Source: Spirochaetia bacterium (GTDB lineage: Bacteria > Spirochaetota > Spirochaetia > DSM-2461). From it: a stretch of DNA of 64,000 nucleotides. Every line of letters begins with the position of its first letter. Positions within the stretch are counted from its first letter, which is position 1. The translations under genes were made by a program, and so were the position numbers. Below, in pieces: positions 24,986 through 45,202 of the stretch. Where the stretch lies: the NCBI GenBank assembly GCA_963666985.2, contig CAXXIA010000002.1, forward strand, positions 2,496,001-2,560,000. Direction: 5' to 3'. The notes beneath the pieces were generated by a model that had not been told where the DNA came from, did no database searches, and saw only the letters and a program-made list of their open reading frames with translations.

Positions 24986-27403
24986 TCAGTTCTTCACTTC
25001 GAATTCCATCCGTGCGATGACATCATTCTGGAGTTCCCGATTCAGGGGTGTAAAGAACGCGCTGTATCCGGCGATTCGAACCATGAGGTCCCGGTATTCT
25101 TCCGGTTTCTCTTGAGCCTTTCGAAGAATCTCATCACCCAGAACGTTGAACTGAATATGGTATTGGTTGTTCCTAAAATGAGTTTTTACCAGGGATAGAG
25201 CACGATTTCGTCCCGCTTCCGTAGACAGGGAATCGGATGTGAGTCTCATGTTGAAGAGGGAACCTTTCTGGAACCAGATGGCCGGCAGTTTCCCTTCGGA
25301 GTTGATCAGCGCCGTTGGACCGTTTTGCTCCATGCCGTTGGAAGGTGAAACACCGTTGTTCATCGCTTCTCCGGCCTTGCGGCCGTTCGGGAGGGCGCCG
25401 ACGGATTTCCCGAAGGCGATATTGCCCGTTACCGAGCTCTGACTGAGCGCGAATGTTCCGGGGATGGGGCCTTTGCCGTAACGGGAACTTTTAAACTCCT
25501 TGAAATAGGTCGATCCCAAATAGTCGTCGATGGCGACGGTCCATCGATCCGCGTAATCGTCGTCGTTCCCGAATTTGGGAACTTTGTTGATCAGAGTTTG
25601 CCGGATTTCAAATCCCGTGGGAGAGGTCTCCTGATCTTCAAAGTTCGTTTTAAGCGCATGCATGAGCTGCCGCGGGGTGAAGATTTTTTTATCAAAGAGA
25701 ACATAATCTATTGCGGCGATGGAGTCTCCCGCGGTAACCGCTCCGGCTGTGGGACCTCCGTCGGCGGTGTAGCGTGCGCCGCCTTCAACCAGTGATTTAC
25801 CCCGTTCGATGCAGTCGTGTACCAGGGAAGAACGGAAAGCGTTTTGGTCGTGCAGGATGTGCATTTCATCACTGATATGCTCCACAATAACCTGCAGCTC
25901 CATATAGAAGTGCAGCTGTTTTTTATAAGCCGCCAGAATTGCATCCGCGCTTTTAAAAGTTTCCAGAGTTCCGTCTCCGGGTAGCAGTGTTTGTCCGGTG
26001 GCCGGATCGGTACCGTTGTTCAGCGTGATTTCGAACACTTTTCCAAGGTTCAGCCAGGAGCCTTTGGCCGCGAAGTCCCATTTCCCGGGTACCGAAGCTT
26101 CTATGCATCCTACGGGCGCCCAAGTGTAGAGGTCTTCGTCGGCGACTCCCATGTTTTTCAGAATGCGCATTACTCCCGCATCATTGTAAAGGGCGGGCTG
26201 ACCGCCTTTATGCGCCTGTATCGTCCGAAGCACCTCGTCCATGAACGCATCGTCGGTTCCTTCAAACCACTTCATTGAAACCGAAGGTTTGGTAAGGCCC
26301 ATCTGTGCGGTGGCGTCCAGAATGATTCGCGTCAAATCGTTCACCGCGTTTTTTCCGTCCGCGGTTTGGCCTCCGACGGCCAGATTCTCCGCAAGGTGAT
26401 AACCCGGAAAAAACTCGCTGTCGGACCATGAGCGAAGCTTGTTGATTTCATTGCACTTGATGAAAAACGATTCCACCAGTTCCAGGGCGAATTCCCGCGT
26501 TATGGCGCCGGAAGCAAGGTCGGCTTCCAAAAAGGGCCACAAGTATTGGTCGAATCGTCCCAGAGAAACAGCATGACCGTTGGTTTCAATTTGGATGGCC
26601 AAATGAACAAACCAGACGGTTTGAATCGCTTCCCAGAAGTTCCGGGCCGGTTCCGCCGGAACCCTGCGGCAGTTTTCGGCCATTTTTTTCAGTTCCGCCT
26701 TACGGGCCGGATCCGCGGCTTTTTCGGATTCTTCGACGAGTTTTTCGGCGAAACGCCCGGCGAAGTTGATAACCGCTTCATTGGAGCGAATAACCGCTTC
26801 AAGAAACCAGGATTGATTGATGGCTCCCGGTTCGGTCATATCGAGGTTCTTCAGGCGTTCTTTCGCTTGAGCGATAACGCCGTTCAGTCCTGCGCGGAGT
26901 ACCATTTCGTGGTCCGGCAGAACATTGCCCAATCCGGCGGCCGCGCACCAGGTATCGTCGATGGCGTTCAGTTCCCAGGCTTTTCGCGCCGCTTCCGGCA
27001 ATTGATCCCACACGCAGCTGATAAGAGATTTGTTTTCCCAATATGCGATGGTTTTTAGAACACGTGACTTGGTTTCTTCCGTATAGCTGAATTGATCACA
27101 GGGCCTTTCATGAAAATGGTAGGGATTTCCTTCGAATTCCTCAACGATCCACCGGGTTGAGTATTCCGGAAATACGGGTGCCGCATGAACGGAACTTGCC
27201 TGATTCCCTACCAGCAGTTCTCCGTCCCTGACAAGAATGGACATCCTGTCGAGAACATCATAAAAGGCGTCGGCCCGTCTTTTAACAATGGGGCGGCCTT
27301 CACTTTTTTTCATTGATTCGGTAAAGATTTCTGCCCGTTCCGGACATATCGCCGGAAAACTCTCGAATAGTCCGTTACGTAATTTTTGGATTCGATCGGT
27401 CAT
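24986..27403 (-). CDS. Glycyl radical enzyme (PFL2/eliminase class), substrate unknown
   Basis: Cys loop PVGCIE, Gly loop VRIAGYS, SLGRFDQYL; GAGGAG RBS before ATG 27403. Confidence 0.95.
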   Translation of the reverse strand: MTDRIQKLRNGLFESFPAICPERAEIFTESMKKSEGRPIVKRRADAFYDVLDRMSILVRDGELLVGNQASSVHAAPVFPEYSTRWIVEEFEGNPYHFHERPCDQFSYTEETKSRVLKTIAYWENKSLISCVWDQLPEAARKAWELNAIDDTWCAAAGLGNVLPDHEMVLRAGLNGVIAQAKERLKNLDMTEPGAINQSWFLEAVIRSNEAVINFAGRFAEKLVEESEKAADPARKAELKKMAENCRRVPAEPARNFWEAIQTVWFVHLAIQIETNGHAVSLGRFDQYLWPFLEADLASGAITREFALELVESFFIKCNEINKLRSWSDSEFFPGYHLAENLAVGGQTADGKNAVNDLTRIILDATAQMGLTKPSVSMKWFEGTDDAFMDEVLRTIQAHKGGQPALYNDAGVMRILKNMGVADEDLYTWAPVGCIEASVPGKWDFAAKGSWLNLGKVFEITLNNGTDPATGQTLLPGDGTLETFKSADAILAAYKKQLHFYMELQVIVEHISDEMHILHDQNAFRSSLVHDCIERGKSLVEGGARYTADGGPTAGAVTAGDSIAAIDYVLFDKKIFTPRQLMHALKTNFEDQETSPTGFEIRQTLINKVPKFGNDDDYADRWTVAIDDYLGSTYFKEFKSSRYGKGPIPGTFALSQSSVTGNIAFGKSVGALPNGRKAGEAMNNGVSPSNGMEQNGPTALINSEGKLPAIWFQKGSLFNMRLTSDSLSTEAGRNRALSLVKTHFRNNQYHIQFNVLGDEILRKAQEKPEEYRDLMVRIAGYSAFFTPLNRELQNDVIARMEFEVKN

Positions 27404-27429
27404 ATGTTTGTTCTCCTCAAGAGAATGAG

Positions 27430-27443
27430 TGAAAACGCTTTCA
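27430..27443. promoter_or_regulatory. LacI-type operator TGAAAACGCTTTCA
   Basis: Palindrome with central CG; related copies at 27599 and 29749. Confidence 0.7.
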
Positions 27444-27445
27444 CT

Positions 27446-27463
27446 ATGTTCATAACATAACAT
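27446..27463. promoter_or_regulatory. DeoR/GlpR-type operator ATGTT-N8-AACAT
   Basis: Related copies at 29668, 39812, 40047. Confidence 0.7.
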
Positions 27464-27598
27464 GCTTTTCTAAATATCGCAAATTGAATATTTCCGGCTT
27501 TCCGGCGATGAAAAAGACTCATCGAAGTGTTTTTACGGAAATAGGAAGAAACGGTCCCGAATTGACAGGTGTTCTTCGGGCCTTTACTATGAATAAAT

Positions 27599-27612
27599 TG
27601 AAATCGGTTTCA
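27599..27612. promoter_or_regulatory. LacI-type operator TGAAATCGGTTTCA
   Basis: Downstream of a TTGACA...TACTAT promoter, just before the lacI-family gene. Confidence 0.65.
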
Positions 27613-27625
27613 CCAAAAGGTCTGC

Positions 27626-28639
27626 ATGGGGCGCTATACCATTAATGAAATTGCTGAAATCTGCCATACCTCACCGGCTACGGTGTCGCGGGTTCTTAAC
27701 AATCCTCATCTGGTTGCCGAGCCCTTAAGAAAAAGAATCCGGAAAACGATGGAAGAGGTTGGGTACAGGCCGAATCCGTTCGCTTCACGCTTAAGCTCCC
27801 GCTCCGGCTGGGGATTGGCCCTTTTCGTCTTCGATATTCTGAATCCCTTTTTCGCTCTTATCGTGAGGAAGATCGGCCATTTGGCCATGGAACAGGGGAT
27901 TCCCCTGACCATCTGCGATACCGAGAATAACGAGGAAAAGGAAAAGATGTTCCTCGATTACCTTCTGGATAATCAGATAGGCGGCATTATTTTCGGTGAA
28001 GGTATTTCCGCGGGAACCATTGAACGGGCCATGGATTCCACCGAGACGGTTCTGATCGACAGGCATTTAAAGGAAGGTTTGGTTTCCGAAGTCACCAGCG
28101 ACAACTATCGCGGCGCCTGCCAGGCGGTTGAATATCTCTATCAATTGAGTCATCGCCGAATCGGTTTTATCGGCGGGCCCGAGAGCTGGGCTTCGGTTGA
28201 GGAGCGGTTTCGCGGGTATCGGGACACTCTGGAACGCAACGGAATACCCTACAATCCCGCCCTTATGTTCCGGGGAGATCTCCGTTTTGAGTCGGGGATC
28301 GGGGCGCTGGAGTATTTTCTGACCCTTCCCGAATGGCCGACGGCAATCTTCAGCGCCAACGATCAGATGGCGTTCGGCGTTCTTACCAAGGCTAAGGCCA
28401 TGGGGATTGATGTTCCCGGCGATATATCGCTGATCGGTTTCGACGATATTCCTCTCTACAGCTTGTATTCGACGAGGCTTACGGCGATACAGCAGGACAT
28501 CGACGCTCTCTGCGAGAATGCTTTTCGAATTATGATGGAAAAATTGAACGGAACGCCGGAAGAGGGCCCTAAGGATAGAGTCGTCGTACCGACGCGTTTA
28601 AAAACGGGCGAAACCTGCGGGAAATGCTCCCGACCGTGA
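27626..28639 (+). CDS. LacI-family transcriptional regulator
   Basis: TINEIAEICHTSPATVSRVLN HTH, YRPN, NDQMAFG, GFDD. Confidence 0.95.
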   Translation: MGRYTINEIAEICHTSPATVSRVLNNPHLVAEPLRKRIRKTMEEVGYRPNPFASRLSSRSGWGLALFVFDILNPFFALIVRKIGHLAMEQGIPLTICDTENNEEKEKMFLDYLLDNQIGGIIFGEGISAGTIERAMDSTETVLIDRHLKEGLVSEVTSDNYRGACQAVEYLYQLSHRRIGFIGGPESWASVEERFRGYRDTLERNGIPYNPALMFRGDLRFESGIGALEYFLTLPEWPTAIFSANDQMAFGVLTKAKAMGIDVPGDISLIGFDDIPLYSLYSTRLTAIQQDIDALCENAFRIMMEKLNGTPEEGPKDRVVVPTRLKTGETCGKCSRP

Positions 28640-29556
28640 ATATTAATGCAATTCTTTTTGATATAGAACGTTATGCCCTTGAAGACGGTCCGGGTATCAG
28701 AAGCGTCGTGTTCTTTAAAGGGTGTAATCTGCGCTGTCTTTGGTGTCAGAATCCTGAATCGCAAGACGGGAATCCTCAAATACTGTATTCACGGAACGAA
28801 TGCATCGCCTGCGGCCGATGTGCCGAAATATGTCCTGTTGATGCAATCCGGGATGTTCCGGATTTCGGCTATGTTACGGATCATTCGGTTTGTACTGTCT
28901 GCGGCAAATGCGTGGATGCCTGCTATACGGGAGCAAGGAAAATCGTCGGTCGAAGCATGGATATCGATTCGATCATGGAAGAAATACTTAAAGACAGGGA
29001 TTTCTACAGGGAATCCGGCGGCGGAGTCACTTTTTCCGGCGGCGAGCCCCTTTTGCAGGATGCGGTTGTATCCGCGCTGGCCCTGCGGTGCCGGGAACAA
29101 GGAATTCATACGGCGCTTGAAACCGCCGGTTTCGTTTCGCGTTCCGTTTTGGATAAGATTGTGCCCTTAATAGATCTTATTTATTTCGATTTGAAGCACA
29201 TCGACTCCGGTGAACACCGGAAATTTACCGGCGTTCCCATAGAGCCGATCCTCGAAAACTTGAAAGCGGTCTCGGCTTCGGCGGCCCGCCTTATCGTTCG
29301 GATTCCTCTTATTCCGCATGTGAATGATGATAATAAAACAATAAGCCGGATGTTTGAATTTCTGAAGAAGGAATGCGCGGGGCCCGAAGTGGAAATCCTG
29401 CCTTTCCATCGCCTCGGTTTGGGGAAGTACGAAGGATTGGGGCGGAGTTATTCAATGGCCGCAACCTTGAATCTGGGAAAGGCCGATTGTGAACCGTTTG
29501 CGGAGCTGGGAAGAGCGATGGGACTCGTGGTTCGAACCGGAGCCGGCGGGGTTTGA
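28636..29556 (+). CDS. Glycyl-radical enzyme activating protein with 2x[4Fe-4S] insert
   Basis: DGPGIRSVVFFKGCNLRCLWC, CIACGRCAEICP, CTVCGKCVDAC, SGGEP; GTG overlaps the lacI stop. Confidence 0.95.
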   Translation: MNINAILFDIERYALEDGPGIRSVVFFKGCNLRCLWCQNPESQDGNPQILYSRNECIACGRCAEICPVDAIRDVPDFGYVTDHSVCTVCGKCVDACYTGARKIVGRSMDIDSIMEEILKDRDFYRESGGGVTFSGGEPLLQDAVVSALALRCREQGIHTALETAGFVSRSVLDKIVPLIDLIYFDLKHIDSGEHRKFTGVPIEPILENLKAVSASAARLIVRIPLIPHVNDDNKTISRMFEFLKKECAGPEVEILPFHRLGLGKYEGLGRSYSMAATLNLGKADCEPFAELGRAMGLVVRTGAGGV

Positions 29557-29667
29557 ACGGCCCCGATGATATCCGGATGAAAGAGTGTTTCTCGGGCTCC
29601 GTCCGTATCACAAGACCGGGAAACGAACCGCCTTCATGACCCAAAATTGTTATCAATTAACGATTAG

Positions 29668-29685
29668 ATGTGAACAAACGAACAT
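29668..29685. promoter_or_regulatory. DeoR/GlpR-type operator (ATGTG-N8-AACAT)
   Basis: One mismatch to the shared palindrome; upstream of TTGACA(29711)...TACAAT promoter. Confidence 0.6.
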
Positions 29686-29748
29686 TTTGCAATGAAACAT
29701 AACATTTTTCTTGACATCCGCCCGGGAGTCGTTACAATTTTATCAAAC

Positions 29749-29762
29749 TGAAAGCGGTTTCA
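29749..29762. promoter_or_regulatory. LacI-type operator TGAAAGCGGTTTCA
   Basis: Extended palindrome ACTGAAAGCGGTTTCAGT just downstream of the -10 of the ABC operon. Confidence 0.7.
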
Positions 29763-29814
29763 GTGACAATCAGCACATTGCTGTCACTGAAGACACAAAC
29801 CGTAAGGAGGATTT

Positions 29815-30765
29815 ATGTTGAAAAAGATTCTCGTCATCGCCTTGATCCTGATGGTTCCCGCCGGTTTTCTTTTCGCCAACGGCGGGGGAGAGAAATCGGC
29901 GTCCAATCTGATGGTGATTATTACTCCGGATAAGGACAATACGTTCTTTACCGCCGAGGCCGATGCCGCGAAAGCCATGGCCGAATCTCTCGGTTATCAG
30001 ACGCTTCTTGTTGTTCATGGCGACGATCCCAACAAAGAGAGTGAGATTATCGACACCGCGATCTCGCAGAAAGCCGCCGCGATTATCATCGACATCGCCA
30101 ATGCCGATGCCTCTCCCAACAACTTGCGCCGGGCCGATGAAGCGGGTATCCCCGTATTCTGCATGGATCGTGAAATCAATGCGGCCGGCATCGCCAAGGC
30201 TCAGCTGATCTCCGACAACTTCCAGGGCGCTCAGCTCGGCGGCGAGTATTTCGTCGAACTGATGGGCGAAAAGGGCGACTGGGTTGAGCTCGTCGGTAAA
30301 GAATCCGATACCAATGCCGGTGTTCGTTCCAAGGGATTCCACTCCATTATCGATCAGTATCCCGATATGGTGATGGTTGCCCGGGAAACCGCCAACTGGA
30401 GCCAGACCGAAGCTTATTCCGATGTTGAGTCCATTCTTCAGGCCAACCCCACGGTGAAGGGCATCATTTGCGGCAACGACACAATGGCTCTTGGTGCGAT
30501 GGCCGCCGCCGAAGCCGCGGGCCGCGGTGACATCGTCGTTATGGGATTCGACGGAAACGACAATGTTCTGGATTCCATCATGCAGGGAAAGATCAAAGGC
30601 ACCGTTATGCAGCCGAACGCCCTGAACGCCGAGATGGCCGTACAGCTGGCCGATAAGTACATCAAATCCGGTTCCACGGGTATGGATCAGGAAAAGATTC
30701 TTAACGGATGTTTCCTTATTACGAGTAAAGAAGCCAAACAATGGCGAGGATTCAAGAAGCTGTAA
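29815..30765 (+). CDS. Sugar/polyol ABC transporter substrate-binding protein
   Basis: Signal peptide; DNTFF, DREI, SDNFQGA, GKESDTNAGVRSKGF, ANWSQTEA; resembles SBPs of DUF2291-associated importers. Confidence 0.9.
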   Translation: MLKKILVIALILMVPAGFLFANGGGEKSASNLMVIITPDKDNTFFTAEADAAKAMAESLGYQTLLVVHGDDPNKESEIIDTAISQKAAAIIIDIANADASPNNLRRADEAGIPVFCMDREINAAGIAKAQLISDNFQGAQLGGEYFVELMGEKGDWVELVGKESDTNAGVRSKGFHSIIDQYPDMVMVARETANWSQTEAYSDVESILQANPTVKGIICGNDTMALGAMAAAEAAGRGDIVVMGFDGNDNVLDSIMQGKIKGTVMQPNALNAEMAVQLADKYIKSGSTGMDQEKILNGCFLITSKEAKQWRGFKKL

Positions 30766-30863: not shown

Positions 30864-31550
30864 ATGCGAGAAAACAAAAATTCACCGATTCTGCTGACGG
30901 CGTTAATATTCTGCGTTGCACTGATTTCTTCGTGCACTGTCGTCAAGATCGAAGATAAGGAATCAGGCGAAGGGGACGAATACTCCACATGGACCAAGAC
31001 GGGGACGGGTTTCGTCGCGGTTGATTATGTCGAGTCGGTCTGGGAAGAGAAAATGATCCCGATTTTCGAGGAAGAAGCCGTGGACTACGAAATGCTCATG
31101 AGCGCTCTTGCCGAAGATCGTCAGGGTAAATCGAAAGAGTACGGACTTCTCCGGCAGACCGGAGAACCTTTTTATGTGTTTAAAGTCCGAGGCAAAGCGA
31201 AGGTTCTGGAGTTCGACGACAGTTCCCGAAACGGCGTAATCAGGGTGGATCATGAGCCTGAGGACGGTATCGCGGATGCCGTTATTCAGGTCGGACCGGT
31301 TCTGAAGGGATCGGCATTAAGGGATTCGGTGGAGTTCATTCGGTTTACCGATGTGGGTAATCAGCTCCAGTTTGCCGATCTGGCGAAAGAGATGAACATG
31401 CGGATGAAGGCCGATTCTCTTGATCCTCTCGATTTGACCGCCCTTAAAGGAAAAACAATCGAGTATCTGGGAGCTTTCCGTCTGGAAACGGAATCACCGC
31501 TGGAAGATGTGGTTATAACACCGCTGGTTTTGAACGTGGTGGAAGACTGA
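30864..31550 (+). CDS. DUF2291 family lipoprotein
   Basis: Lipobox SSCTVVK; IQVGPVLKGSALRD...FTDVGNQLQFA. Confidence 0.85.
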   Translation: MRENKNSPILLTALIFCVALISSCTVVKIEDKESGEGDEYSTWTKTGTGFVAVDYVESVWEEKMIPIFEEEAVDYEMLMSALAEDRQGKSKEYGLLRQTGEPFYVFKVRGKAKVLEFDDSSRNGVIRVDHEPEDGIADAVIQVGPVLKGSALRDSVEFIRFTDVGNQLQFADLAKEMNMRMKADSLDPLDLTALKGKTIEYLGAFRLETESPLEDVVITPLVLNVVED

Positions 31551-31559
31551 GGATGCGAT

Positions 31560-33113
31560 ATGACTGAAAATGAAAAACCCTTGGTTCTGGAAGCCGAGGG
31601 CATCCGAAAGGTCTATCCCGGTACCGTTGCTCTCAGCGGCGTGGATTTTAGAGTATACGGCGGCTGCGTCAATGCGCTTGTCGGTGAAAACGGCGCGGGA
31701 AAATCCACTCTGATGAAGATTCTCGCCGGTATAGAACAGCAGAACGGCGGTACGATCACTCTCTATAAAGAAAACGGCGACGGGGAGCAGGTGAACTTCG
31801 CTTCTACCCGGGAGGCCGTCGCAAAAGGCATAGGAATTGTTCATCAGGAACTGAACCTGTTTGCCGACTTGAGCGTTGCCGAGAACATCTTCATGAATAA
31901 AGAGAAGGTGAAATATCGGAAGCTCTTCATCGATCATTCCATTCAAGAAAATCTGGCGGCCGACGTACTGAAGAAACTCGGTCAGGATATTGATCCGAGA
32001 ACTCCCGTGCGCGATCTTCGCCTTGGCCAGCAGCAGATTGTCGAAATTGCCAAGACAATGATCGACGAACCGAAAATCCTCATCATGGATGAACCCACAT
32101 CTTCTTTGAGCATTCCCGAGGTTCGGGTTCTTTTTAAGGTGATGAATGATTTAAAAGCCAATGGAGTCGCCATTATTTATATCTCCCATCGTTTGGAGGA
32201 AATAAAGGAGATCGGCGATTATATCACCATCCTGCGGGATTCGCGTCTGATTGATTCGGGGCGGGTTAACGAGATGAAAATGCCGGACATCATCGAAAAA
32301 ATGGTGGGCCGCGACCCGAAGAAATTTTTTACCGGTCAGGCACATGCAACCGGTGAAGTTCTTTTAAAAGCGAAGGATATAACCCTCCCGCGCTATGGCG
32401 GCGGCTATACGCTCGACCATGTTTCCTTTGAGGTGCGCAAGGGGGAGGTTCTCGGTATATACGGCCTCATGGGCGCCGGGCGAACGGAGCTTCTGGAAAG
32501 TCTTATGGGAGGCATGCCGGCCGCGGAAGGCGAAGTATGGCTGGACGGCAAGCGTCTCGACGGCTTCGACATGAAGAAGCGGATAGAGGCCGGTTTGGTT
32601 CTTATCCCCGAAGAACGGCAGAGGGAAGGTTTGTTCCTAAATCTTGAAGTCGACAAAAACCTTACCATGTCGAGTATCGGTAAGTTCACGAAAGGCTTCC
32701 ATATAAGGAAAAATCCCGAAGCGAAAAGCGTCAGGGAGATTATCGAATCCATAAAAATCCGAGTTGCCTCTCCTGAAATCTCCGTTACGGCGCTTTCGGG
32801 CGGCAATCAGCAGAAGGTGGTTATCGGAAAGGCTCTGCTCACCGATCCCAAGATTCTGCTGATGGATGAACCTACTCGCGGGATTGATGTCGGTGCCAAG
32901 TCCGATGTCTTTAAAATCGTCGATTCGATGGCCAACGAAGGCTTCGGCATCGTGCTTGTTTCTTCGGAGCTTGAAGAGGTCTGTTCCATGTCGGACCGGA
33001 TTCTCGTTTTGTCCAAGGGACAGGTAACCGGTGAGTTCAACAGAACCGAAGCGAACGAAGAAACAATTCGGAAAGCTTCGGAAATCGGTCATGGAATATC
33101 CGTTTCTGCATAA
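31560..33113 (+). CDS. Sugar ABC transporter ATP-binding protein
   Basis: GENGAGKST, MDEPT, LSGGNQQK. Confidence 0.95.
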   Translation: MTENEKPLVLEAEGIRKVYPGTVALSGVDFRVYGGCVNALVGENGAGKSTLMKILAGIEQQNGGTITLYKENGDGEQVNFASTREAVAKGIGIVHQELNLFADLSVAENIFMNKEKVKYRKLFIDHSIQENLAADVLKKLGQDIDPRTPVRDLRLGQQQIVEIAKTMIDEPKILIMDEPTSSLSIPEVRVLFKVMNDLKANGVAIIYISHRLEEIKEIGDYITILRDSRLIDSGRVNEMKMPDIIEKMVGRDPKKFFTGQAHATGEVLLKAKDITLPRYGGGYTLDHVSFEVRKGEVLGIYGLMGAGRTELLESLMGGMPAAEGEVWLDGKRLDGFDMKKRIEAGLVLIPEERQREGLFLNLEVDKNLTMSSIGKFTKGFHIRKNPEAKSVREIIESIKIRVASPEISVTALSGGNQQKVVIGKALLTDPKILLMDEPTRGIDVGAKSDVFKIVDSMANEGFGIVLVSSELEEVCSMSDRILVLSKGQVTGEFNRTEANEETIRKASEIGHGISVSA

Positions 33114-36795: not shown

Positions 36796-37509
36796 TTACT
36801 CCGGATAGAAAAGATCGATTAAACCCTTGTTCGCCCCCGGCGCACCGATCATGGGGAGTTCACGGGTTTTCATCGTCCGTTCCATTTTTTCCACTTCTTT
36901 ACGCGGAATTTCCTTCACTTCACCGGCCGCCAGGGCGGCAAGAATGGAAATGGAACTCACTTCAAGCATATCGACGATATGCATAAGCCGGATGATGTCC
37001 GAAGGACTTATGGCCGTAATTCCATGGTTTTCCATGATGAAGGTGTTGTACTTCTGAAGATAAGGGATGAAGTTATCCGCCAGTTCCTGTGAAATAGGCT
37101 CTCCGTAGGGAACCACGGGAACGGGACCTATCTCCACGACGCTTTCGGGAAACAGCGGACGCATCAGCCAGTTTTCCTTCATGATGGCGAATGCGTTTGT
37201 CCAGGGCGGATGACAATGGATGGCCGAAACGATGTCCGGTCTGTGCTTGAAGAAATTCAGGTACATCGGCATTTCGCCGCTGGGTTTTCTGGTTCCTTCA
37301 AGAACATTGCCTTCGATGTCGACGAACACAAGATCTTCGGGAACGAGGATATTTTTATATCTTCGCGTCGGGGTGATGATGTAGATATTCTCTTCCACTT
37401 TGTAGGCAAGATTTCCGCCGTGGCTCGTGGCGAAAAGGCGATCGGCCAGAATCTTGCAAACATAAAGAAAATCATCGACTTCTTTTTTGTGTTTTTTGAG
37501 CAAGCTCAT
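36796..37509 (-). CDS. Class II aldolase/adducin family protein (aldolase or epimerase)
   Basis: GGNL, ITPT, PSGE, AIHCHP, MENHG. Confidence 0.85.
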   Translation of the reverse strand: MSLLKKHKKEVDDFLYVCKILADRLFATSHGGNLAYKVEENIYIITPTRRYKNILVPEDLVFVDIEGNVLEGTRKPSGEMPMYLNFFKHRPDIVSAIHCHPPWTNAFAIMKENWLMRPLFPESVVEIGPVPVVPYGEPISQELADNFIPYLQKYNTFIMENHGITAISPSDIIRLMHIVDMLEVSSISILAALAAGEVKEIPRKEVEKMERTMKTRELPMIGAPGANKGLIDLFYPE

Positions 37510-37520: not shown

Positions 37521-38402
37521 TTATTTTGCTTCTTCGGCCTTAACCTGCCGATAGATTTCAAACGCTTCTTTCGGCTTGGCGCTGCCGTGAACAACGGCAT
37601 TAATGGCCTGCATCATTCCATGGGGAGAATCCGATTGGAAAATATTTCTACCCATATCCACGCCGGCGGCTCCCTGGTCGATGGCCCTGTAGGCCATTTC
37701 GATGGCGTCCATTTCCGGTCTTTTCTTTCCGCCGGCGATTACGATGGGCACCGGACAGCAGGCGGTTACCGTTTCGAATTCTTCGTCGGTGTAATAAGTC
37801 TTAATAACGTGAGCCCCGAGTTCCGCGCACATTCGGGTGGCCAGTCTGAAGTATTTCGGCGTTCTGGCCATTTCCCGTCCGACGGCCGTTACCGCCATCG
37901 TGGGAATCCCGTACCGGAGTCCGGCGTCCACGAGTTTGGTCATGTTCACGACGCTTCGTGATTCGAACTCGCCGCCGATGAATACCTGAATCGCGGTTCC
38001 GCAAACGCCCAGACGGATGCAGTCTTCGATATCCATCGCGATTTCCTCATTGGAAAGCTCTTTAAGAATGCTGGGGCCGCCTGAAGCCCGAATCATGACG
38101 GCTTTCGTCATCGAGGGAGGAACGACGCTTCGCAGAATTCCCCGTGTACACATCAGTGTATCCGCATACGGAACCAAGGGCATGATATCGACATCGACCC
38201 GTTCGAGGCCGGTCGTAGGTCCCTGAAAGTATCCGTGGTCTATGGCCAGCATAATGGTTTTTCCATCTTTCGGATTGAAAACCCTGGATAAACGGTTTTT
38301 CATTCCCCAGCCGAGTTCGTTTGAACCTTTCAGTCCGTATAACTCCGATTTCTGAGGGATATCAACGTGATAATTACGACCTTCAACATCGGCTTCAGGC
38401 AT
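37521..38402 (-). CDS. lsrF: LsrF-type 3-hydroxy-5-phosphonooxypentane-2,4-dione thiolase
   Basis: [52 protein letters not shown]. Confidence 0.9.
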
Positions 38403-38411: not shown

Positions 38412-38990
38412 CTAATACTTTAATGTTCCGTCGGGATTACGGAAATCATCCAGAGTCATTCCTCTCTCTTCCAATTCTTTGAGAAGAATCTCCAAGCCCC
38501 AGCGGGCTCCGTCGCCGACGGCCATGCAGCATTTATCATCGTCGTGATGTGCTCCCGCCGCTCGGAAAGCTTCCTTATCTTCATCAATGCGAAGGTCGAA
38601 ATGACGTCCGTCATAAAGGGATTTCTGGACGCCGCTACAGAGCACGCTGCCGAATTTCTCTTCGAATTTATCATGGAGAGCCCGTGTCATGCGGAACGAA
38701 TCGTATTTATCGGCTCGTCCCTCCTCGCTGGCTTCCTTGGCGCGGGTGCGGCCGAAAAAACTGGCCATAACCATGGACGCGCCCGTGTAGCCGCCGCAGT
38801 TCCCGTCGGTACATTCTCCGCCGCCGCCGGCCAGACCGCTTCCGGCCTTGTAGACAATTTCATCTTTTATGCCGATGGCATCGAATATCCCGGCAATGGC
38901 GCATTGAGCGCATCCGCGATAATCCCGTTCGTACTTAAAACCCAGATCGAATGCTTTTTGCAGCAAAGCGTCTTTTTCTTTCTGATCCAT
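38412..38990 (-). CDS. C-GCAxxG-C-C family putative redox protein
   Basis: CAQC, GLAGGGG...CGG, FGSVLC, C-terminal Cys. Confidence 0.8.
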   Translation of the reverse strand: MDQKEKDALLQKAFDLGFKYERDYRGCAQCAIAGIFDAIGIKDEIVYKAGSGLAGGGGECTDGNCGGYTGASMVMASFFGRTRAKEASEEGRADKYDSFRMTRALHDKFEEKFGSVLCSGVQKSLYDGRHFDLRIDEDKEAFRAAGAHHDDDKCCMAVGDGARWGLEILLKELEERGMTLDDFRNPDGTLKY

Positions 38991-39014
38991 ACAGGTACCC
39001 TCCTGATGTTGTTT

Positions 39015-39776
39015 CTATTTATATGTCGATCCACCATCGACGATGATGTTTTGTCCGCAGATAAAACCGGCCTGGTCCGAAGCGAGGAACAGTACAAGAT
39101 TCGCGACATCCTCAGGCCGGCCCAGACGGCCGACAGGAACCCGGCCTATCATGTCTTTCCATTGTTCCGGGTCCGGATAACGATCCCGGAAGAGATCGGT
39201 TTCGATCAATGCGGGCAGAACGGAATTGACCGTGATTCCTTTCGGCGCCAGTTCTTTGGAAAGATTCCGGACAAGACCGTTGATTCCCGCTTTCGCCGCG
39301 GAATAGAAGGCCGAACCGCCTCCGCCGGTGATGGAGCCGGAAGAACCGATATAAATGATTCGGCCGGTTTCGCTCATGTATTCCAAAGCGGCGCGGGTAA
39401 CATAGAATGCCGCCGACAGATTCACTTCGATGCCGCTTTTCCACTGCTTGTCGGTAATTTCCTTGGCGCCCAAAGGAACGGCAAATCCCGCGCTGTTGAT
39501 CAGGATATCAAGCCTTCCGTAGGTCTCTTTTGCCGTTTTGCAGAGTTCCGAGCAGAATTGGGAATCCGTAATATCGCCGGGGCATGACGTGCAGCGTCCG
39601 CCGAATCCTTCGATTTCCGCCTTTACCTTTTCAAAACCCGCGATATCCCGTTCAACCGGAAGATAATTTATAACGACCGATACTCCGGATTGGGCGAGAG
39701 CCGTACAAATGGCCGCTCCAATTCCGCGGGATCCGCCTGTGACGACGGCAACTTTATCCTTCAGCCGCAGCTCCAT
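39015..39776 (-). CDS. Short-chain dehydrogenase/reductase (FabG-like)
   Basis: TGGSRGIG, YSAAK, GRLGRPEDVA, VDGG. Confidence 0.92.
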   Translation of the reverse strand: MELRLKDKVAVVTGGSRGIGAAICTALAQSGVSVVINYLPVERDIAGFEKVKAEIEGFGGRCTSCPGDITDSQFCSELCKTAKETYGRLDILINSAGFAVPLGAKEITDKQWKSGIEVNLSAAFYVTRAALEYMSETGRIIYIGSSGSITGGGGSAFYSAAKAGINGLVRNLSKELAPKGITVNSVLPALIETDLFRDRYPDPEQWKDMIGRVPVGRLGRPEDVANLVLFLASDQAGFICGQNIIVDGGSTYK

Positions 39777-39811
39777 ATATTCCTCCAGAGTCTTTGAGTT
39801 GTTGCCTATTA

Positions 39812-39829
39812 ATGTTACAAACAGAACAT
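39812..39829. promoter_or_regulatory. DeoR/GlpR-type operator ATGTT-N8-AACAT
   Basis: Upstream of the SDR-lsrF-aldolase-kinase operon. Confidence 0.7.
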
Positions 39830-40046
39830 TAAATTGTGACTTATTCTTACATTATAGGCCGGGATGTGAGAATGTCAACAAGAAGAAAAGTAATTCAAGA
39901 GGATAATTTCGGGATAAACGATGGAAATTCGGTATGGTTTCGGCGCTTCGGAGATGGATGTTTTATTCATTTATTCCATCTCACATAAGTGTTTAAGATT
40001 TGTCGGCGGAACAGGTTTCCGGTTGTGGTAGAGTTTACACAAAAAA

Positions 40047-40064
40047 ATGTTGACAATGGAACAT
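40047..40064. promoter_or_regulatory. DeoR/GlpR-type operator ATGTT-N8-AACAT overlapping a TTGACA -35
   Basis: Upstream of the second ABC operon. Confidence 0.7.
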
Positions 40065-40112
40065 TGAACGCTTGATACTGATGGAAGCGACAATTTGAAA
40101 TGGAGGTATTAC

Positions 40113-41105
40113 ATGAAGAAATGTTTTCTGGTGCTCCTGGTGCTGGGCCTGACGGCGGCGCCGGTATGCCTGTTCGCGGGCGGAGGATCGGAGGCCAAAG
40201 GGGATTCCTACGAGATTGCCACGGTCGTCAAGATTACCGGTATCCCCTGGTTTAACCGGATGGAAGAAGGCGTGAAACGGGCCGCCGATGAGCTCGGTGT
40301 GAACGCTTATCAGGTCGGTCCGGCCGACGCCGATCCCGCTCAGCAGGTTCGCATGGTTGAAGATCTGATCAGTAAAGGCGTGGACGCCATCTGCGTAACT
40401 CCCAACGATGCAAAGGCTCTCGAACCTGTATTCAACCGGGCTCGGAAGGAAGGTATCATCATTATTACTCATGAGTCTCCGGATCAGAAAGGCAAGGACT
40501 ATGATCTTGAGCTTATCGATAATGAGAACTTCGGCCGGCATCACTGGGATATGCTGGCAAAGTATATGGGGAATTCGGGGAAGTACGCCATTTTCGTCGG
40601 ATCTTTGACGGTTCCCCTGCACAACCTCTGGGCCGATGTGGGTATTGATTACGCCAAGACGAAATATCCCGGCATGGAACTGGTAACCGATCGTATTCCC
40701 TGCGGTGAAGATCAGGAACTCTCCAAGCAGAGAACTCTTGAGTTGCTTCAGGCGTATCCCGATTTGGCCGGTATCATCGGTTTCGGAAGTCTCGGCCCTC
40801 CGGGTGCGGCTCAGGCGCTCAAAGAGAAAGGCCTTACCGAAGAAGTCTCCGTCGTCGGTACGGTTCTTCCCGGACATGCGGCTCAGTACCTGAAAGACGG
40901 TTCCATGGATCACGGTATCCTGTGGGATCCCGCCGATGCCGGTTACGCCATGACTTGGGTTGCCCTGCAGATGCTGGAAGGCAAAGAGATTAAAGACGGA
41001 ATGACGGTGCCCGGCATGGGCAAAACGGTCCTTGACGGTGATGTTATCAAGGTTGACGCCATGATCGATATTACCGCCGAGAATGCGGACGATTTCGGAT
41101 TCTAA
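40113..41105 (+). CDS. Sugar ABC substrate-binding protein (LsrB/RhaS-like)
   Basis: GGAGG RBS, ATG 40113; VKITGIPWFNRMEEG, LWDPADAG. Confidence 0.88.
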   Translation: MKKCFLVLLVLGLTAAPVCLFAGGGSEAKGDSYEIATVVKITGIPWFNRMEEGVKRAADELGVNAYQVGPADADPAQQVRMVEDLISKGVDAICVTPNDAKALEPVFNRARKEGIIIITHESPDQKGKDYDLELIDNENFGRHHWDMLAKYMGNSGKYAIFVGSLTVPLHNLWADVGIDYAKTKYPGMELVTDRIPCGEDQELSKQRTLELLQAYPDLAGIIGFGSLGPPGAAQALKEKGLTEEVSVVGTVLPGHAAQYLKDGSMDHGILWDPADAGYAMTWVALQMLEGKEIKDGMTVPGMGKTVLDGDVIKVDAMIDITAENADDFGF

Positions 41106-41116
41106 GTGATTCTTTC

Positions 41117-41163
41117 GGCGGCGGACCGTATTTCTTCTTCGAAATGCGGCCCGCCGTCTTTTC
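41117..41163 (+). terminator. Hairpin after the SBP gene (attenuator or mRNA stabiliser)
   Basis: GGCGGCGGACCGTATTTC...GAAATGCGGCCCGCCGTC followed by TTTT. Confidence 0.5.
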
Positions 41164-41196
41164 TTAAGCAATAAAAAATAGGAACAGGCGATTGAT

Positions 41197-42690
41197 GTGA
41201 AATTCCTCGAAATGCGGAATGTTAGGAAGCGGTATACCGGTGTCCAAGCCCTGGGGGGTGTCGATTTCGATATCTCGGCCGGTGAGGTTCATTGCCTCGC
41301 CGGTGAGAACGGCAGCGGGAAATCCACGCTGATTAAAATCATCTCCGGTGTTGAAACTCCGGATGAGGGGACGGAAATCCTTATTGATGGGAATCCGATC
41401 GGACAGCAGGATTCCCTGAAAGCGATGAGGCGGGGCATTGAGGTGATTTACCAAGATCTTTCTCTGTTCCCGAATATGACCGTATCGGAAAATATTGCTC
41501 TGAATGAAGTCATCGGTTCCGGCAGCCGGATTATCACCAAGTCGAAGGAACGCGAGATTGCCAAGTCCGCGATGAATCGTGTCGGAATCGAACTTCCGAC
41601 GGATGAGCTTGTCGGTGATTTGTCCATGGGCGATCAGCAGCTTGTCGCCATTTGCCGTGCTTTGACATCGGATATCAGGCTTCTGATTATGGATGAGCCC
41701 ACGACGGCTTTAACCCGCAAAGAGGTTGTGGGGTTGTTTCGAGCGGTGGAGGAACTTCGAGCACAGGGAATTGCCTCTCTCTTCGTCAGCCACAAACTCT
41801 GTGAAGTTCTGGAAATTGCCGAGAGGGTGACTGTGCTTCGCGACGGACAAAAGGTGGGAGTCTATCCCGCCTCCGAGCTTGACGATGCAAAGCTGTCCTT
41901 TCTGATGACCGGAGAAAACTTGGAATATGAGTCTTTTGTTTATGACTTGGGAAATCGGAAACCTCTGCTTGAAGTGAACAATCTCTCCCGCAGGGAGCAT
42001 TTCTCAGGCATCGATTTTCAGCTGTTTCCGGGAGAAATCCTGGGAATTACCGGATTGCTGGGTTCGGGAAGAACGGAACTGGCCATGGCTCTTTTCGGAC
42101 TGAATCAACCCGATTCCGGAGAGGTTGTTCTCGACGGAAAGAAGGTGAATCTTAAAAGCGCGAAAAAGGCGGCCGCGGCGGGGATGGCCTATGTGCCCGA
42201 GAACCGGCTGGTTCTAGGTTTGGTTATGCCTCAATCGGTCGCTCGGAATACCGTTCTTACCACCATACGCGGACTCGTCGGCCGCTTCGGTTCCGTGGAC
42301 GAGCGGCGCTTCGACGAGAGCGTCGATTACTGGGTGAAGCGTCTGCGAATAAAAGTTCCGAATGTATCCTCGCCGGTTTGCACCCTTTCCGGAGGAAATC
42401 AGCAGAGGGTTGTTCTGGCCAAATGGATGGCCGCGAGTCCCAAGGTTCTTATTCTGGACGGACCGACGGTCGGAATCGACGTTGCCGCGAAGAGCGCCAT
42501 TCATTCGTTTCTCAGGGAACTCGCGGCAACCGGGGTGGGTATTATCATCATTTCGGATGAAATCCCCGAAGTTCACGGGAACTGCAACAGAATCCTGCTG
42601 ATGCATCGCGGCCGCATTCGGGGAGAATTTCTGTCCGCCGAAATCACACCGGCGGAAATTCAAGATGAGATAGAACGGATCGCTCAATGA
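41197..42690 (+). CDS. Sugar ABC transporter ATP-binding protein
   Basis: GENGSGKST, MDEPT, LSGGNQQR. Confidence 0.95.
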   Translation: MKFLEMRNVRKRYTGVQALGGVDFDISAGEVHCLAGENGSGKSTLIKIISGVETPDEGTEILIDGNPIGQQDSLKAMRRGIEVIYQDLSLFPNMTVSENIALNEVIGSGSRIITKSKEREIAKSAMNRVGIELPTDELVGDLSMGDQQLVAICRALTSDIRLLIMDEPTTALTRKEVVGLFRAVEELRAQGIASLFVSHKLCEVLEIAERVTVLRDGQKVGVYPASELDDAKLSFLMTGENLEYESFVYDLGNRKPLLEVNNLSRREHFSGIDFQLFPGEILGITGLLGSGRTELAMALFGLNQPDSGEVVLDGKKVNLKSAKKAAAAGMAYVPENRLVLGLVMPQSVARNTVLTTIRGLVGRFGSVDERRFDESVDYWVKRLRIKVPNVSSPVCTLSGGNQQRVVLAKWMAASPKVLILDGPTVGIDVAAKSAIHSFLRELAATGVGIIIISDEIPEVHGNCNRILLMHRGRIRGEFLSAEITPAEIQDEIERIAQ

Positions 42691-43706
42691 AGAAATCTGA
42701 CATCACGCGCTTAATGCGCAAGCACGAAACTTACGTATTCCTCGCCATCCTGATCTTGACGGTTTTAATTACGGCTTTAAATCCCAATTTTCTGACGCTG
42801 GAAAATATTTTCGATATTCTCAAGAGCTATTCGTTCATCGGAATCTTGTCCATCGGCGTTTTGGTTGTGCTTATCTCCGGAGGGATGGATATTTCCTTTA
42901 CGGCCGTCGCCACGGTGGGCGAATATGTTATGGCCGTTATTATTTCCAAGCATACCGGGAACATCGTTATCGCCTTTGTTATTTCCATGGTCATCGGTTT
43001 TATCCTGGGAACGCTGAACGCGGTTTTGATTTACCGATTCAATATTCCTTCCATGATCGTCACTATTGGGAATCTGAATGTGTTCTACGGCCTGCTGATT
43101 GTATTCTCAGGAGGGAAATGGATTTACACCATGCCCGAATGGTTCGCCAAGTTCGCGGAGATTCGCCTGTTTTCTCTTGCCGCCGCCGATGGGGTTCAAT
43201 TCGGGCTGTCCATCATGACGGTTATCTGGATTCTTGTGATTCTCGTCGCCGCGTTTATTTTGAAGTTTACGGCGCTGGGCCGCAGTTTGTATGCCTTGGG
43301 CGGATGCGGTTCGGATAAAACACCGGCCCGAAGGGCGGGGATTAATGTTTTTAAGGTGCAGCTTTTCGTCTATTCCTTCATGGGCGTTATCGCCGGTATC
43401 GCCGGTGTGGTGCAGGCCCTTTTGGTTCAGGCCGTGGCTCCCAACAGTATTGTCGGCAAGGAGCTTAATGTCATTGCCGCGGTTGTTATCGGCGGCGCCA
43501 GCATTTCCGGCGGGACGGGAACCATTATCGGAACGCTGCTCGGCGTGTTCCTTTTGGCTGTGCTGAGTAACGGCCTCACTTTGATGCGGGTGCCGTCTTA
43601 TTGGTACGACGTTGTGATCGGTCTTGTCATCGTTGCCAGCGTCGGCGCCAGTGCGCTTCAGCAGAAAAGAAAAAATCAGCGGGCCATCGCCGTGGAGGAA
43701 CTATGA
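42687..43706 (+). CDS. Sugar ABC transporter permease
   Basis: GGMDISF, VIGGASISGG; multiple TM helices. Confidence 0.92.
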   Translation: MKKSDITRLMRKHETYVFLAILILTVLITALNPNFLTLENIFDILKSYSFIGILSIGVLVVLISGGMDISFTAVATVGEYVMAVIISKHTGNIVIAFVISMVIGFILGTLNAVLIYRFNIPSMIVTIGNLNVFYGLLIVFSGGKWIYTMPEWFAKFAEIRLFSLAAADGVQFGLSIMTVIWILVILVAAFILKFTALGRSLYALGGCGSDKTPARRAGINVFKVQLFVYSFMGVIAGIAGVVQALLVQAVAPNSIVGKELNVIAAVVIGGASISGGTGTIIGTLLGVFLLAVLSNGLTLMRVPSYWYDVVIGLVIVASVGASALQQKRKNQRAIAVEEL

Positions 43707-44707
43707 GCGGGAATGTCATGAGGAAGAAATCCAACTTTCTGGAGAACGAATACACCCTTTTGGGAATTATCATCGTCGTGATGCTGCTGCTCATGGGGAT
43801 TCTGAATCCGTCCCGTTTTTTCAGAATTACCAATCTGCAGTCCATGGCTTTCCAGATGCCCGAATTGGGGCTTTTGTCTTTGGGTATGATGCTGGTGATG
43901 CTGACCGGAGGCATCAATCTTTCCATAATCGCTTCGGCGAATCTCTCGGGGATTCTCATGGCACTGGTGCTGAACGCCATGGCGCCGCCCGATCTTTATA
44001 CGGGAGCCGGATTGGGCGCGGCATTAACGGCCGTCGCCGTCGGGCTTGCGGCCGGCGTACTGGTGGGTGTGATCAACGGGTTTCTCGTTGCGAGAATCGG
44101 CGTATCTCCGATTCTGGCGACTTTGGGAATGATGACGCTTCTGGGAGGACTGAATATCCTTATTACCAAGGGCTATGTTATCTCGGGATTCCCGCCGGCC
44201 TTCCTGTTCTTGGGAAACGGCAAAGTTCTGGGACTGCCTTTTCCCTTCCTCATTTTTATCGTTATAGCTTTTATCGCGGGTTATGTGATGAAGCGGACTC
44301 CGTACGGTCTCGAAGTCTACATGCTGGGAACAAATGAAACCGCCGTTCGATATTCGGCGGTGGATGTACCGCGTGTTCTGATGAAAACGTATATCGTTTC
44401 CGGTCTGCTTTCTTCCGTCGCGGCCGTTGTGATGATTTCACGGTTCAATTCGGCAAAGTCCGATTACGGCGAGTCTTACCTTCTGGTGACTATTCTGGCG
44501 GCCGTGCTCGGCGGGACGGATGTGGACGGCGGATTCGGTAAGGTGTTGGGCCTGTTCCTGGCCTTGGTTATTCTGCAGATTATCGGCAGCGGACTCAATC
44601 TGCTTCAGGTGAACGCTTTTCTTACCCGGGCGATTTGGGGCCTGATTCTGGCCGCGGTGATGATCGGTCAGTACTACAGGGGGCGGGCCGCCACCCGGCG
44701 GAGATAG
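43703..44707 (+). CDS. Sugar ABC transporter permease
   Basis: ATG 43703 overlaps the previous stop; GGINLS, VLGGTD. Confidence 0.92.
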   Translation: MSGNVMRKKSNFLENEYTLLGIIIVVMLLLMGILNPSRFFRITNLQSMAFQMPELGLLSLGMMLVMLTGGINLSIIASANLSGILMALVLNAMAPPDLYTGAGLGAALTAVAVGLAAGVLVGVINGFLVARIGVSPILATLGMMTLLGGLNILITKGYVISGFPPAFLFLGNGKVLGLPFPFLIFIVIAFIAGYVMKRTPYGLEVYMLGTNETAVRYSAVDVPRVLMKTYIVSGLLSSVAAVVMISRFNSAKSDYGESYLLVTILAAVLGGTDVDGGFGKVLGLFLALVILQIIGSGLNLLQVNAFLTRAIWGLILAAVMIGQYYRGRAATRRR

Positions 44708-44903
44708 GAACGCGGACGGGGCTGTCGTATAGGCGGCCCCCGATGGGCCGCCTATGGGCCGCCGTTTTGTCCGTGATTCGCCGACTGGCCGAATGGAATC
44801 TCGGCCGCGGAATCCCGCGGCGAAAAGGGCAAAACCTTTCGAATCACCCGGATGATTCGGGAAACATAGACATCAATGTGTGTGTCCTTTAGGATCGGTA
44901 TTT

Positions 44904-45202
44904 ATGACGTCCACCCCTCTTTACCTGGCTTTGGATATCGGGGCCGCTTCCGGCGCGAAACTGGCTTTGTTTACAGATGGTTCCATGCCTATTACCGAAC
45001 CGAGAAACTGTGCTTTGCGGTATCATGAGGTTTTCGACGATTTCGTCGATGCCCTGCTCGCCGGCGCGGAAGAAACCCTCGGAGAAATGAACCGATCTTT
45101 CAAGGATCTGGCCGCGATCGGAATCGCCTCGGCGGGAATCCTCGGGAAAGACGGACGATTCCAGCTGTTTCATAACCGTCCGCAGTACAACGGATTCAAT
45201 CT
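44904..45202 (+). pseudogene. ROK family sugar kinase/regulator, N-terminal fragment cut by the prophage
   Basis: LALDIGA, AAIGIASAG motifs; frame stops a few codons after the prophage junction. Confidence 0.75.

Follow-up and report, generated by a model that had tools for sequence, protein, structure and literature searches.

A glycyl radical enzyme of a YbiW-related clade beside an LsrF operon in a Spirochaetia genome, and its possible place in anaerobic sugar catabolism

The 64,000-nucleotide stretch analysed here (the window; positions 2,496,001 to 2,560,000 of contig CAXXIA010000002.1, Spirochaetia assembly GCA_963666985.2) carries a gene cluster with a glycyl radical enzyme (GRE) and an orthologue of the thiolase LsrF. 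The family scan covered the window genes between 17475 and 52399, and the remainder of the window was listed as genes. The GRE has 805 amino acids (24986..27403, reverse strand; Pfam PFL-like and Gly_radical). Its start was set at 27403 rather than 27463, because a ribosome binding site lies upstream and the longer reading frame would enclose a LacI-type operator. Next follow, on the forward strand, a LacI-family repressor (27626..28639; profile search, best model CytR with 209 against a cut-off of 436), the GRE activase with its ferredoxin insert (28624..29556; TIGR02494, 345 bits against 174) and importer 1, which consists of sugar-binding protein 1 (29815..30765), a DUF2291 lipoprotein (30864..31550; Pfam), an ABC ATPase (31560..33113) and a permease (33134..34198; both from profile searches). 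A DeoR-family repressor (34253..35083, forward strand; best model DeoR, 157 against 244) comes after them. The genes of a short-chain dehydrogenase (SDR; 39015..39776; profile search), a C-GCAxxG-C-C protein (38412..38990; Pfam), LsrF (37521..38402), a class II aldolase-fold protein (36796..37509; Pfam) and an FGGY kinase (35269..36777), all on the reverse strand, form one operon that converges on the DeoR side. Importer 2 is encoded on the forward strand by the genes of sugar-binding protein 2 (40095..41105), an ABC ATPase (41197..42690) and two permeases (42687..43706 and 43703..44707; all three from profile searches). Every gene named in the initial annotation of this DNA was found in its place, except that the ROK gene is only a fragment of 106 amino acids, and the two regulators had been passed over.

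Operators were also found, as had been claimed, but they are not one shared set: the motif search gave two distinct motifs, of LacI and of DeoR type, and within the window both are present at importer 1 only. The LacI-type palindrome lies before the GRE (27430..27443), before lacI (27599..27612) and before importer 1 (29749..29762), which are three of the four distinct sites in the genome, with 0.5 expected. Among orthologues, it precedes the GRE in 36 of 37 cases and the importer-1 binding protein in 18 of 19, and it is absent before all 22 importer-2 binding proteins and all 11 SDRs. The DeoR-type palindrome lies before importer 1 (29668..29686), the SDR operon (39811..39830) and importer 2 (40046..40065). 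This pattern was derived from these same sites and is not rare (9 matches genome-wide, 8 expected), so the independent test on orthologues counts more. In this test a DeoR-like site was found upstream of 15 of 40 partner aldolases, 5 of 22 importer-2 binding proteins, 3 of 11 SDRs and 5 of 19 importer-1 binding proteins, and upstream of none of 37 GREs, 22 activases and 19 ATPases. Judged by these predicted sites, the cluster is composed of two separable regulons, one under LacI (GRE and importer 1) and one under DeoR (importer 2 and the SDR-LsrF operon, with importer 1 as a weak member).

The GRE shows the features of the PFL-like superfamily, namely a Cys loop with the CxE motif (C453/E455), a Gly loop (G799), a 10-stranded barrel and a cognate activase, the latter with two extra ferredoxin motifs. 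The predicted structure confirmed the superfamily fold (TM about 0.9), which does not separate the subclasses. In the profile search the broad model TIGR01774 alone was passed (681 against 678), and every function-specific model failed; the NCBIfam equivalog models of PflD, HypD, CutC, HpfG, HpsG, IAD and HPAD gave 290-527 against cut-offs of 1000-1150. Solved GREs share at most 33-36% identity with it. A comparison with characterised enzymes had been proposed together with the initial annotation, and models, solved structures and tree all keep the GRE apart from them. Its relatives at 50-84% identity form one discrete cluster (the representative scored 1210 bits, the next 907), and the adjacent clusters share 41-42% identity with it. 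A tree of 70 rows (FastTree), labelled by motif and not by characterised proteins, placed the clade in a 15-row group with YbiW-motif proteins (97% local support), apart from the row with the motif of glycerol dehydratase and propanediol dehydratase (GD/PD).

Conservation of the pocket within the clade is strict: D169, W172, R344, W346, Y355, C453, E455, K461, W462, D463, K467 and V678 are invariant in 73 near-full-length members, and N180 occurs in 72 of them. With the YbiW/PflD isomerases of anhydroglycolysis (PDB 8ID7, 8ID0) the enzyme shares the CxE loop, the Lys-Trp pair after it, the Ser at the YbiW 662 position and the layout of a GRE with an aldolase. It is not a YbiW, however, as identity is 33% and the pocket residues His165, His334 and Arg453, whose roles we presume, are replaced by Asn180, Asp348 and Ala465, the last of these followed two positions later by a new Lys; in addition, ABC import, an FGGY kinase and a class II aldolase are found here in place of the fructose-6-phosphate aldolase FSA. 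GD and PD gave the top raw scores (530 and 518 bits), and CxE and the His281 position are kept. Identity to them is nevertheless 35-36%, and the general acid His164 as well as Tyr339, Asp447 and Tyr640 are Asn, Ala, Lys and Ser here; apart from His164 and Glu435, these are positions that we take to belong to the pocket. Unlike GD and PD, this GRE is not accompanied by a microcompartment, which was rejected as no shell gene was found in the genome (93% complete). N180 stands at the position of the catalytic His of GD, and K467 at that of GD Asp447. According to a 2026 review, this His protonates the leaving oxygen in GD, the Cys and Glu of the CxE loop (present in 73 of 73 members of the clade) are a feature of eliminase and isomerase GREs, YbiW takes the hydrogen from C2 and breaks the ring C1-O bond to give a methyl ketone, and whole GRE clades are without a function (PMC13450708). 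By sequence, the GRE is a member of such an uncharacterised, YbiW-related clade. No account of the clade or of a link between a GRE and LsrF was found in the literature, with subscription journals and supplements, which could hold one, mostly outside the search.

One sub-clade differs at two positions of the pocket (Ile297/Gly348) and occurs in two other gene settings. In one (L028, L175, L176, L179-L181, L188, L191, L198, L206) it stands with an FGGY kinase, two DeoC-like proteins, an aldo-keto reductase (AKR) and a zinc-dependent alcohol dehydrogenase. The other (L022, L023, L025-L027, L029, L182, L183, L186, L187) contains an aldehyde ferredoxin oxidoreductase (AFOR), 2-keto-3-deoxygluconate (KDG) and 2-keto-3-deoxy-6-phosphogluconate (KDPG) aldolases, a 2-hydroxyacid dehydrogenase and a HAD phosphatase. 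This sub-clade probably acts on another substrate, and its partners would fit a 3-deoxy-osone product, e.g. from a 3,6-anhydro or 3-O-methyl sugar.

Neighbourhoods were compared at 160 loci (the best 80 of 120 genome loci and the best 80 of 200 metagenome loci), which include some duplicates and many short contigs. Within 10 kb of the GRE, a FucK/RhaB-like kinase was found at 56 loci, a FucA-like aldolase at 63, both at 47 and LsrF at 6; some part of the operon seen in the window was present at 12. When only genome loci flanked by 8 kb or more on each side were counted (34), the kinase was present 25 times, the aldolase 28 times and LsrF once. A flank of 10 kb undercounts these partners, since the kinase lay just past it in four of five checked genomes, and in the window itself 10 kb separate LsrF from the GRE. 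Loci of the compact form (LacI-GRE-activase-kinase-ABC-aldolase) showed no recurrent isomerase among those examined. At the level of genomes, 50 of 77 with the GRE were searched for LsrF; 17 contained it, 15 of these with an adjoining SDR, C-GCAxxG-C-C protein or aldolase. The LsrF module was present in 12 of 23 Spirochaete genomes with the GRE, as against five close LsrF matches among 250 other genomes sampled evenly from the class, where the GRE occurred in six and both in one; these genomes are kin and not independent, and the counts stand without p-values. Adjacency of LsrF and GRE was seen in three phyla and corresponds to four changes on the GRE tree (FastTree). A co-occurrence of GRE and lsrF, as expected from the initial annotation, is therefore real but far from general, and the supposition that LsrF is the usual partner did not hold, as the FucK/RhaB-like kinase and the FucA/DrdA-like aldolase are commoner and the LsrF module also occurs without the GRE. 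One genome (G255) has the GRE at 79% identity and no LsrF. Two others (G155, G017) carry SDR, C-GCAxxG-C-C protein and LsrF alongside a RhaB-like kinase but lack a class II aldolase next to them, a further one (G216) has the LsrF operon in an apparently decayed state, and a uridine-phosphorylase-like gene adjoins in four loci. As read from gene neighbourhoods, LsrF is an optional exit rather than a core component.

Some further genes were noticed at these loci. Genes with DUF4037 and DUF4125 are co-transcribed with the activase, between it and importer 1, in L005, L009, L012, L014-L019, L037 and L042; these are close relatives, whereas neither gene was found in the source genome, and both occur again in the flank of one Firmicute locus (L072). 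C-GCAxxG-C-C proteins adjoin the GRE without LsrF in L023, L029, L039 and L060, and one is part of another kinase/SDR sugar cluster of the source genome (contig C3, about 26000). In L016 (3764-7209) and L011/L172, the LacI-activase operon contains inserted genes for an AFOR and for a long protein with a class II aldolase domain.

The window's kinase is XylB-like: it passed TIGR01312 (438 against 380), and its best PDB matches are xylulokinases. It failed NF011601 (276 against 912) and the LsrK model (164 against 528), and by model it is thus not a kinase of the type that acts on 4,5-dihydroxy-2,3-pentanedione, the specificity that would have spoken against the proposal in the initial annotation. 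The FucK/RhaB-like kinase of the relatives has an L-fuculose kinase as its best PDB match. LsrF (NF006081, 470.6 against 297; PDB LsrF match of 389 bits) contains the Asp57, Lys203 and Asp251 motifs, to which we attribute the catalytic roles, and it is, on these matches, a true orthologue, as had been assumed. The aldolase possesses the FucA-type Glu (Glu79) and Thr46 and not the Asp and Lys of the AraD epimerase, if the two are told apart by an Asp where FucA has Glu73 and by a phosphate-binding Lys. The FucA-type Glu is also present in 75 of 76 class II aldolases of the fetched loci. A role as AraD-type 4-epimerase was rejected on Glu79 and Thr46. DrdA was the best PDB match of both the window's aldolase (6BTD) and the partner aldolase of the relatives. 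A paper on DrdA describes the role of this Glu and a 5-deoxyribulose-1-phosphate aldolase that gives dihydroxyacetone phosphate (DHAP) and acetaldehyde (PMC6079011). LsrF, in its known reaction, converts 3-hydroxy-2,4-pentanedione 5-phosphate (P-HPD) and CoA to DHAP and acetyl-CoA (PMC6410053, PMC8016206).

A true LsrF, a two-permease importer and an FGGY kinase are shared with the catabolism of autoinducer 2 (AI-2) by LsrACDB, LsrK, LsrG and LsrF. The window differs in its AauA-like binding protein, the XylB-like kinase, the DeoR control and the added SDR and C-GCAxxG-C-C protein. A canonical lsr operon was rejected, because the models of LsrB (119 against 384) and LsrK fail and neither lsrG nor lsrR is part of the cluster. 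The absence of lsrG, lsrR and microcompartment genes reported in the initial annotation is correct for the cluster; an LsrG-like ABM protein is encoded elsewhere in the genome, under the cut-off (81.6 against 135), and luxS was not found in the genome at its completeness of 93%.

The nearest PDB entry to binding protein 2 is 9I1M, which is AauA with bound D-ribulose (PMC12307932). The six AauA contacts Lys37, Trp43, Glu118, His167, Glu196 and Ser223 are all kept in it and in seven close orthologues, which marks it as a putative D-ribulose binder of the AauA type. Two permeases are likewise shared with the Aau/Rbl D-ribulose importers, but here the importer is paired with a C1-type kinase and an aldolase or with SDR-LsrF, and not with a D-ribulokinase. 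Close orthologues of importer 2 were found in 17 of 250 genomes, i.e. in 5 of 6 with the GRE versus 12 of 244 without it. All ten fetched importer-2 loci lacking the GRE contain DeoR and a FucA-like aldolase; seven have a RhaB-like kinase, and three contigs end early. The kinases of these loci and of the GRE loci belong to one family tree, and at two loci (L162/L163) a single kinase and a single aldolase serve both the GRE and importer 2. Since kinase family and aldolase types are shared, the product of the GRE would be handled by the same types of kinase and aldolase as the sugar taken up by importer 2. A stand-alone operon of DeoR, FucA-like aldolase, AauA-like importer and RhaB-like kinase occurs in many Spirochaetes (L229-L238) and is likely a D-ribulose 1-phosphate route.

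For binding protein 1, the best PDB matches were 5IBQ and 4RY0, and its Rhizobium homologue is encoded in an oiaX cluster. D-apiose is taken up by a DUF2291-type importer and degraded in a transketolase pathway, and the importer as well as a module of an isomerase, a split transketolase and a glycerol-kinase-like protein recur beside the GRE in close relatives (importer 1 in 22 and the module in 20 of the 52 closest loci). We assume that this module serves apiose, from its link to the binding protein. In the source genome its orthologue lies on another contig (C3:108390-113958, 65-82% identity), and the module's place in the closest relatives (L145, L209) is occupied by a copy of IS1182. Close orthologues of binding protein 1 (79-82% identity) were found in GRE genomes only (4 of 4), whereas a group at 52-61% identity stands with the isomerase/transketolase module in eight of eight fetched loci and is nearer to the Rhizobium protein (62-69% identity, versus 53-57% for binding protein 1). 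Homologous to the binders of apiose clusters, binding protein 1 falls into a paralogue group of its own, in which motifs on the pocket side are altered, and this, together with its restriction to GRE genomes, suggests a specialised offshoot of the apiose-type binders; its ligand is, from these comparisons, probably apiose-like but not apiose. An uptake of apiose through importer 2 instead was rejected, because only 4 of 11 genomes with an apiose-type binder also have importer 2. For the Firmicute-type binder, the neighbours of the predicted structure were all of the ribose/allose type (33-38%); a search for it at loci lacking the GRE gave none above 57% in 399 genomes, and matches at 41-43% belonged to another type of cluster. 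The searches made showed no likeness of either importer to a known polyol binder, and in this respect the pentitol or anhydropentitol substrate of the initial annotation found no backing.

These data are best combined in a proposed pathway of two tiers. In the first, under LacI, importer 1 would take in a neutral sugar of ribose- or apiose-like shape; the activated GRE would then abstract hydrogen from a ring carbinol (Cys453, with Glu455 as base) and break the adjacent ring C-O bond as in YbiW, giving a free 2-ketose. In the second, under DeoR, this ketose, which might also enter through importer 2, would be phosphorylated to a ketose 1-phosphate. Two interchangeable exits could follow. In most relatives the FucA/DrdA-type aldolase would cut the ketose 1-phosphate to DHAP and an aldehyde, and in the source genome the SDR would oxidise C4 and LsrF would thiolyse the product to DHAP and acetyl-CoA. 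A ketose kinase and a Glu-type class II aldolase that yield DHAP and an aldehyde are also the core of L-fucose/D-arabinose and L-rhamnose degradation and of 5-deoxyribose salvage by DrdKIA (the DHAP shunt). The present loci differ by an FGGY kinase rather than MtnK/DrdK and by a GRE where those routes have an isomerase, and as kinase and aldolase occur without an isomerase, the GRE is read as filling that slot. FucK and FucA require hydroxyls at both C1 (free) and C3 of the ketose. Because of this, and of the acetyl end demanded by LsrF, 5-deoxypentulose 1-phosphate would be the only hub that needs no new chemistry: aldol cleavage would give DHAP and acetaldehyde, and oxidation at C4 would give P-HPD. 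With the regiochemistry of YbiW, a free 5-deoxy-aldopentose such as 5-deoxyribose would be the sole substrate that yields 5-deoxypentulose. The two-tier layout with a ketose-phosphate hub is probable. The choice of a 5-deoxy-aldopentose as the substrate is doubtful, and the explanation as a whole, with both exits, hub and substrate, is tentative and has somewhat less than an even chance.

Several observations weigh against this explanation. An aldose can become a ketose without any radical, and as an MtnA-type isomerase is encoded in the genome, an ordinary 5-deoxyribose route may exist. AauA binds a ketofuranose (PMC12307932), a ring that 5-deoxyribulose cannot form. The window's kinase is above the cut-off for xylulokinase, a C5 kinase, and the DrdA match is only narrowly above that of FucA (125 versus 112 bits). 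Binding protein 1 is of apiose-type descent, and the isomerase/transketolase module is a frequent neighbour of the GRE, as described above. The protonating His of GD is Asn in nearly all members of the clade, the partners of the Ile297/Gly348 sub-clade (DeoC-like proteins, KDG/KDPG aldolases, AFOR and AKR) suit a CO-CH2 product, and two genomes (G289, G282) carry the whole LsrF operon and importer 2 without such a GRE.

Other explanations account for parts of these data. XylB can phosphorylate 1-deoxy-D-xylulose, and the initial annotation had the GRE convert a pentitol or anhydropentitol to a 1-deoxy-2-pentulose, which would be phosphorylated and oxidised at C4 before thiolysis by LsrF; either order of the first two steps is considered here. 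This fits the genes of the window (XylB-like kinase, SDR and true LsrF), the relationship of the clade to YbiW with its methyl ketone product (PMC13450708) and, if oxidation came before phosphorylation, also the RhaB-like kinase of G155 and G017. It does not fit most relatives, whose common partners suggest a ketose 1-phosphate and not the 5-phosphate of a 1-deoxypentulose: the 47 loci with kinase and FucA-type aldolase only would have to form hydroxyacetone and glycolaldehyde phosphate. As importer 2 is moreover common to both types of module, the aldolases lack the AraD residues and the importers match binders of ring sugars, the pentitol route is unlikely. A formation of D-ribulose, either by rearrangement of the skeleton of D-apiose or apulose or by loss of methanol from a 2-O-methyl pentose, with subsequent cleavage to DHAP and glycolaldehyde, would agree with importer 2, kinase and aldolase, which all suit D-ribulose. 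It would also explain why binding protein 1 is the sole apiose-type binder found in the genome while the putative apiose module on C3 has no importer, and it is favoured by the frequent vicinity of this module to the GRE, by the change from His to Asn together with the invariant Lys467, which is uncommon among GREs, and by the AFOR within the operon of L016 and L172. However, LsrF would need to make glycolyl-CoA, the radical chemistry would be harder, and the accessible part of the review contains no GRE mutase or demethylase (PMC13450708). Three GRE genomes possess a separate, more typical apiose-type binder, so that the ligand of binding protein 1 probably differs, most loci have no apiose isomerase, and the 66 of 137 flanking genes scanned for a polysaccharide source included one fucosidase and one GH3 and showed no pattern of pectin hydrolases. 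A formation of D-ribulose in one of these ways is improbable as well.

It is quite unlikely that the LsrF module and the GRE are independent neighbours, with importer 2, kinase, C-GCAxxG-C-C protein and LsrF acting on AI-2 or another external ketose. The separate regulons, the annotation of importer-2 homologues as AI-2 binders, the LsrF module lacking the GRE in G289 and G282, the GRE lacking LsrF in five of six sampled genomes and the LsrG-like proteins of the source genome, G282 and G155 (all below the cut-off) would be expected in this case. The adjacency, on the other hand, recurs on four branches, a DeoR-type site lies at importer 1, the LsrF module takes the place of the usual kinase-aldolase pair, and the failing LsrB and LsrK models and the missing lsrR and lsrG speak against AI-2. 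Very unlikely is an action of the GRE on a pentulose or its 1-phosphate, in which the C5-O ring bond would be opened to yield P-HPD for LsrF, as a radical equivalent of phosphoketolase, with SDR and aldolase as a reductive side branch. Although the standard regiochemistry of YbiW and the D-ribulose-type importer could be kept, and a phosphate might be bound by Arg344 and Lys467, which are invariant, most GRE loci are without LsrF, the aldolase would cut pentulose 1-phosphate first, His334 and Arg453 of YbiW align to Asp348 and Ala465, and the GRE belongs to the regulon of importer 1 and not of importer 2.

The superfamily and the single parts are known, and, as far as the literature searched shows, the clade is without an assigned function and the combination without a description. 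GREs are a main source of new anaerobic chemistry. The clade might represent a new kind of radical sugar isomerase, which would convert an aldose to a ketose, shift the skeleton of apiose or apulose or remove an O-methyl group, with Lys replacing His, in an anaerobic pathway of about ten phyla including Clostridia of the human gut and with an AI-2-independent LsrF as an energy-conserving exit; the balance is rather against this proposal. Because the clade is discrete, its pocket fixed and unusual and its operon compact and present in cultured anaerobes such as Lacrimispora amygdalina and Ruminiclostridium sufflavum, a short screen of ligands and substrates could assign it. If the proposal is true, LsrF would work outside the disposal of a quorum signal, and the C-GCAxxG-C-C, DUF2291, DUF4125 and DUF4037 families would gain a context.

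The cluster is bounded by mobile elements on both sides. The IS1182 copy at the left edge, next to the GRE, spans 23235-24960 with its transposase gene at 23302..24882 (forward strand; profile match); the genome has 14 nearly identical copies in all. At the right, the ROK-like gene (44904..45224, forward strand) is an N-terminal piece, and its C-terminal part lies at C2:2576554, past a Mu-like prophage of about 35 kb. The ROK label comes from the weak Pfam match (24.6 bits) of an intact relative, and an intact ROK protein in a working pathway was rejected because of this split. The prophage (45200-64000 of the window and C2:2560000-2576550) contains genes of a Mu transposase, a portal protein, an F protein, a baseplate J protein and a Dam-like methylase.

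Four more GRE/activase pairs are encoded in the source genome (C2:2088919-2104931, C2:1398185-1399867 and C1:75374-78198), and the GRE at C2:2088919 has a YbiW-like Cys loop. A fusion of a sugar-ABC ATPase domain with a PAS histidine kinase is encoded at 21296-23122 of the window and adjoins a sigma-54 response regulator and a sugar importer.

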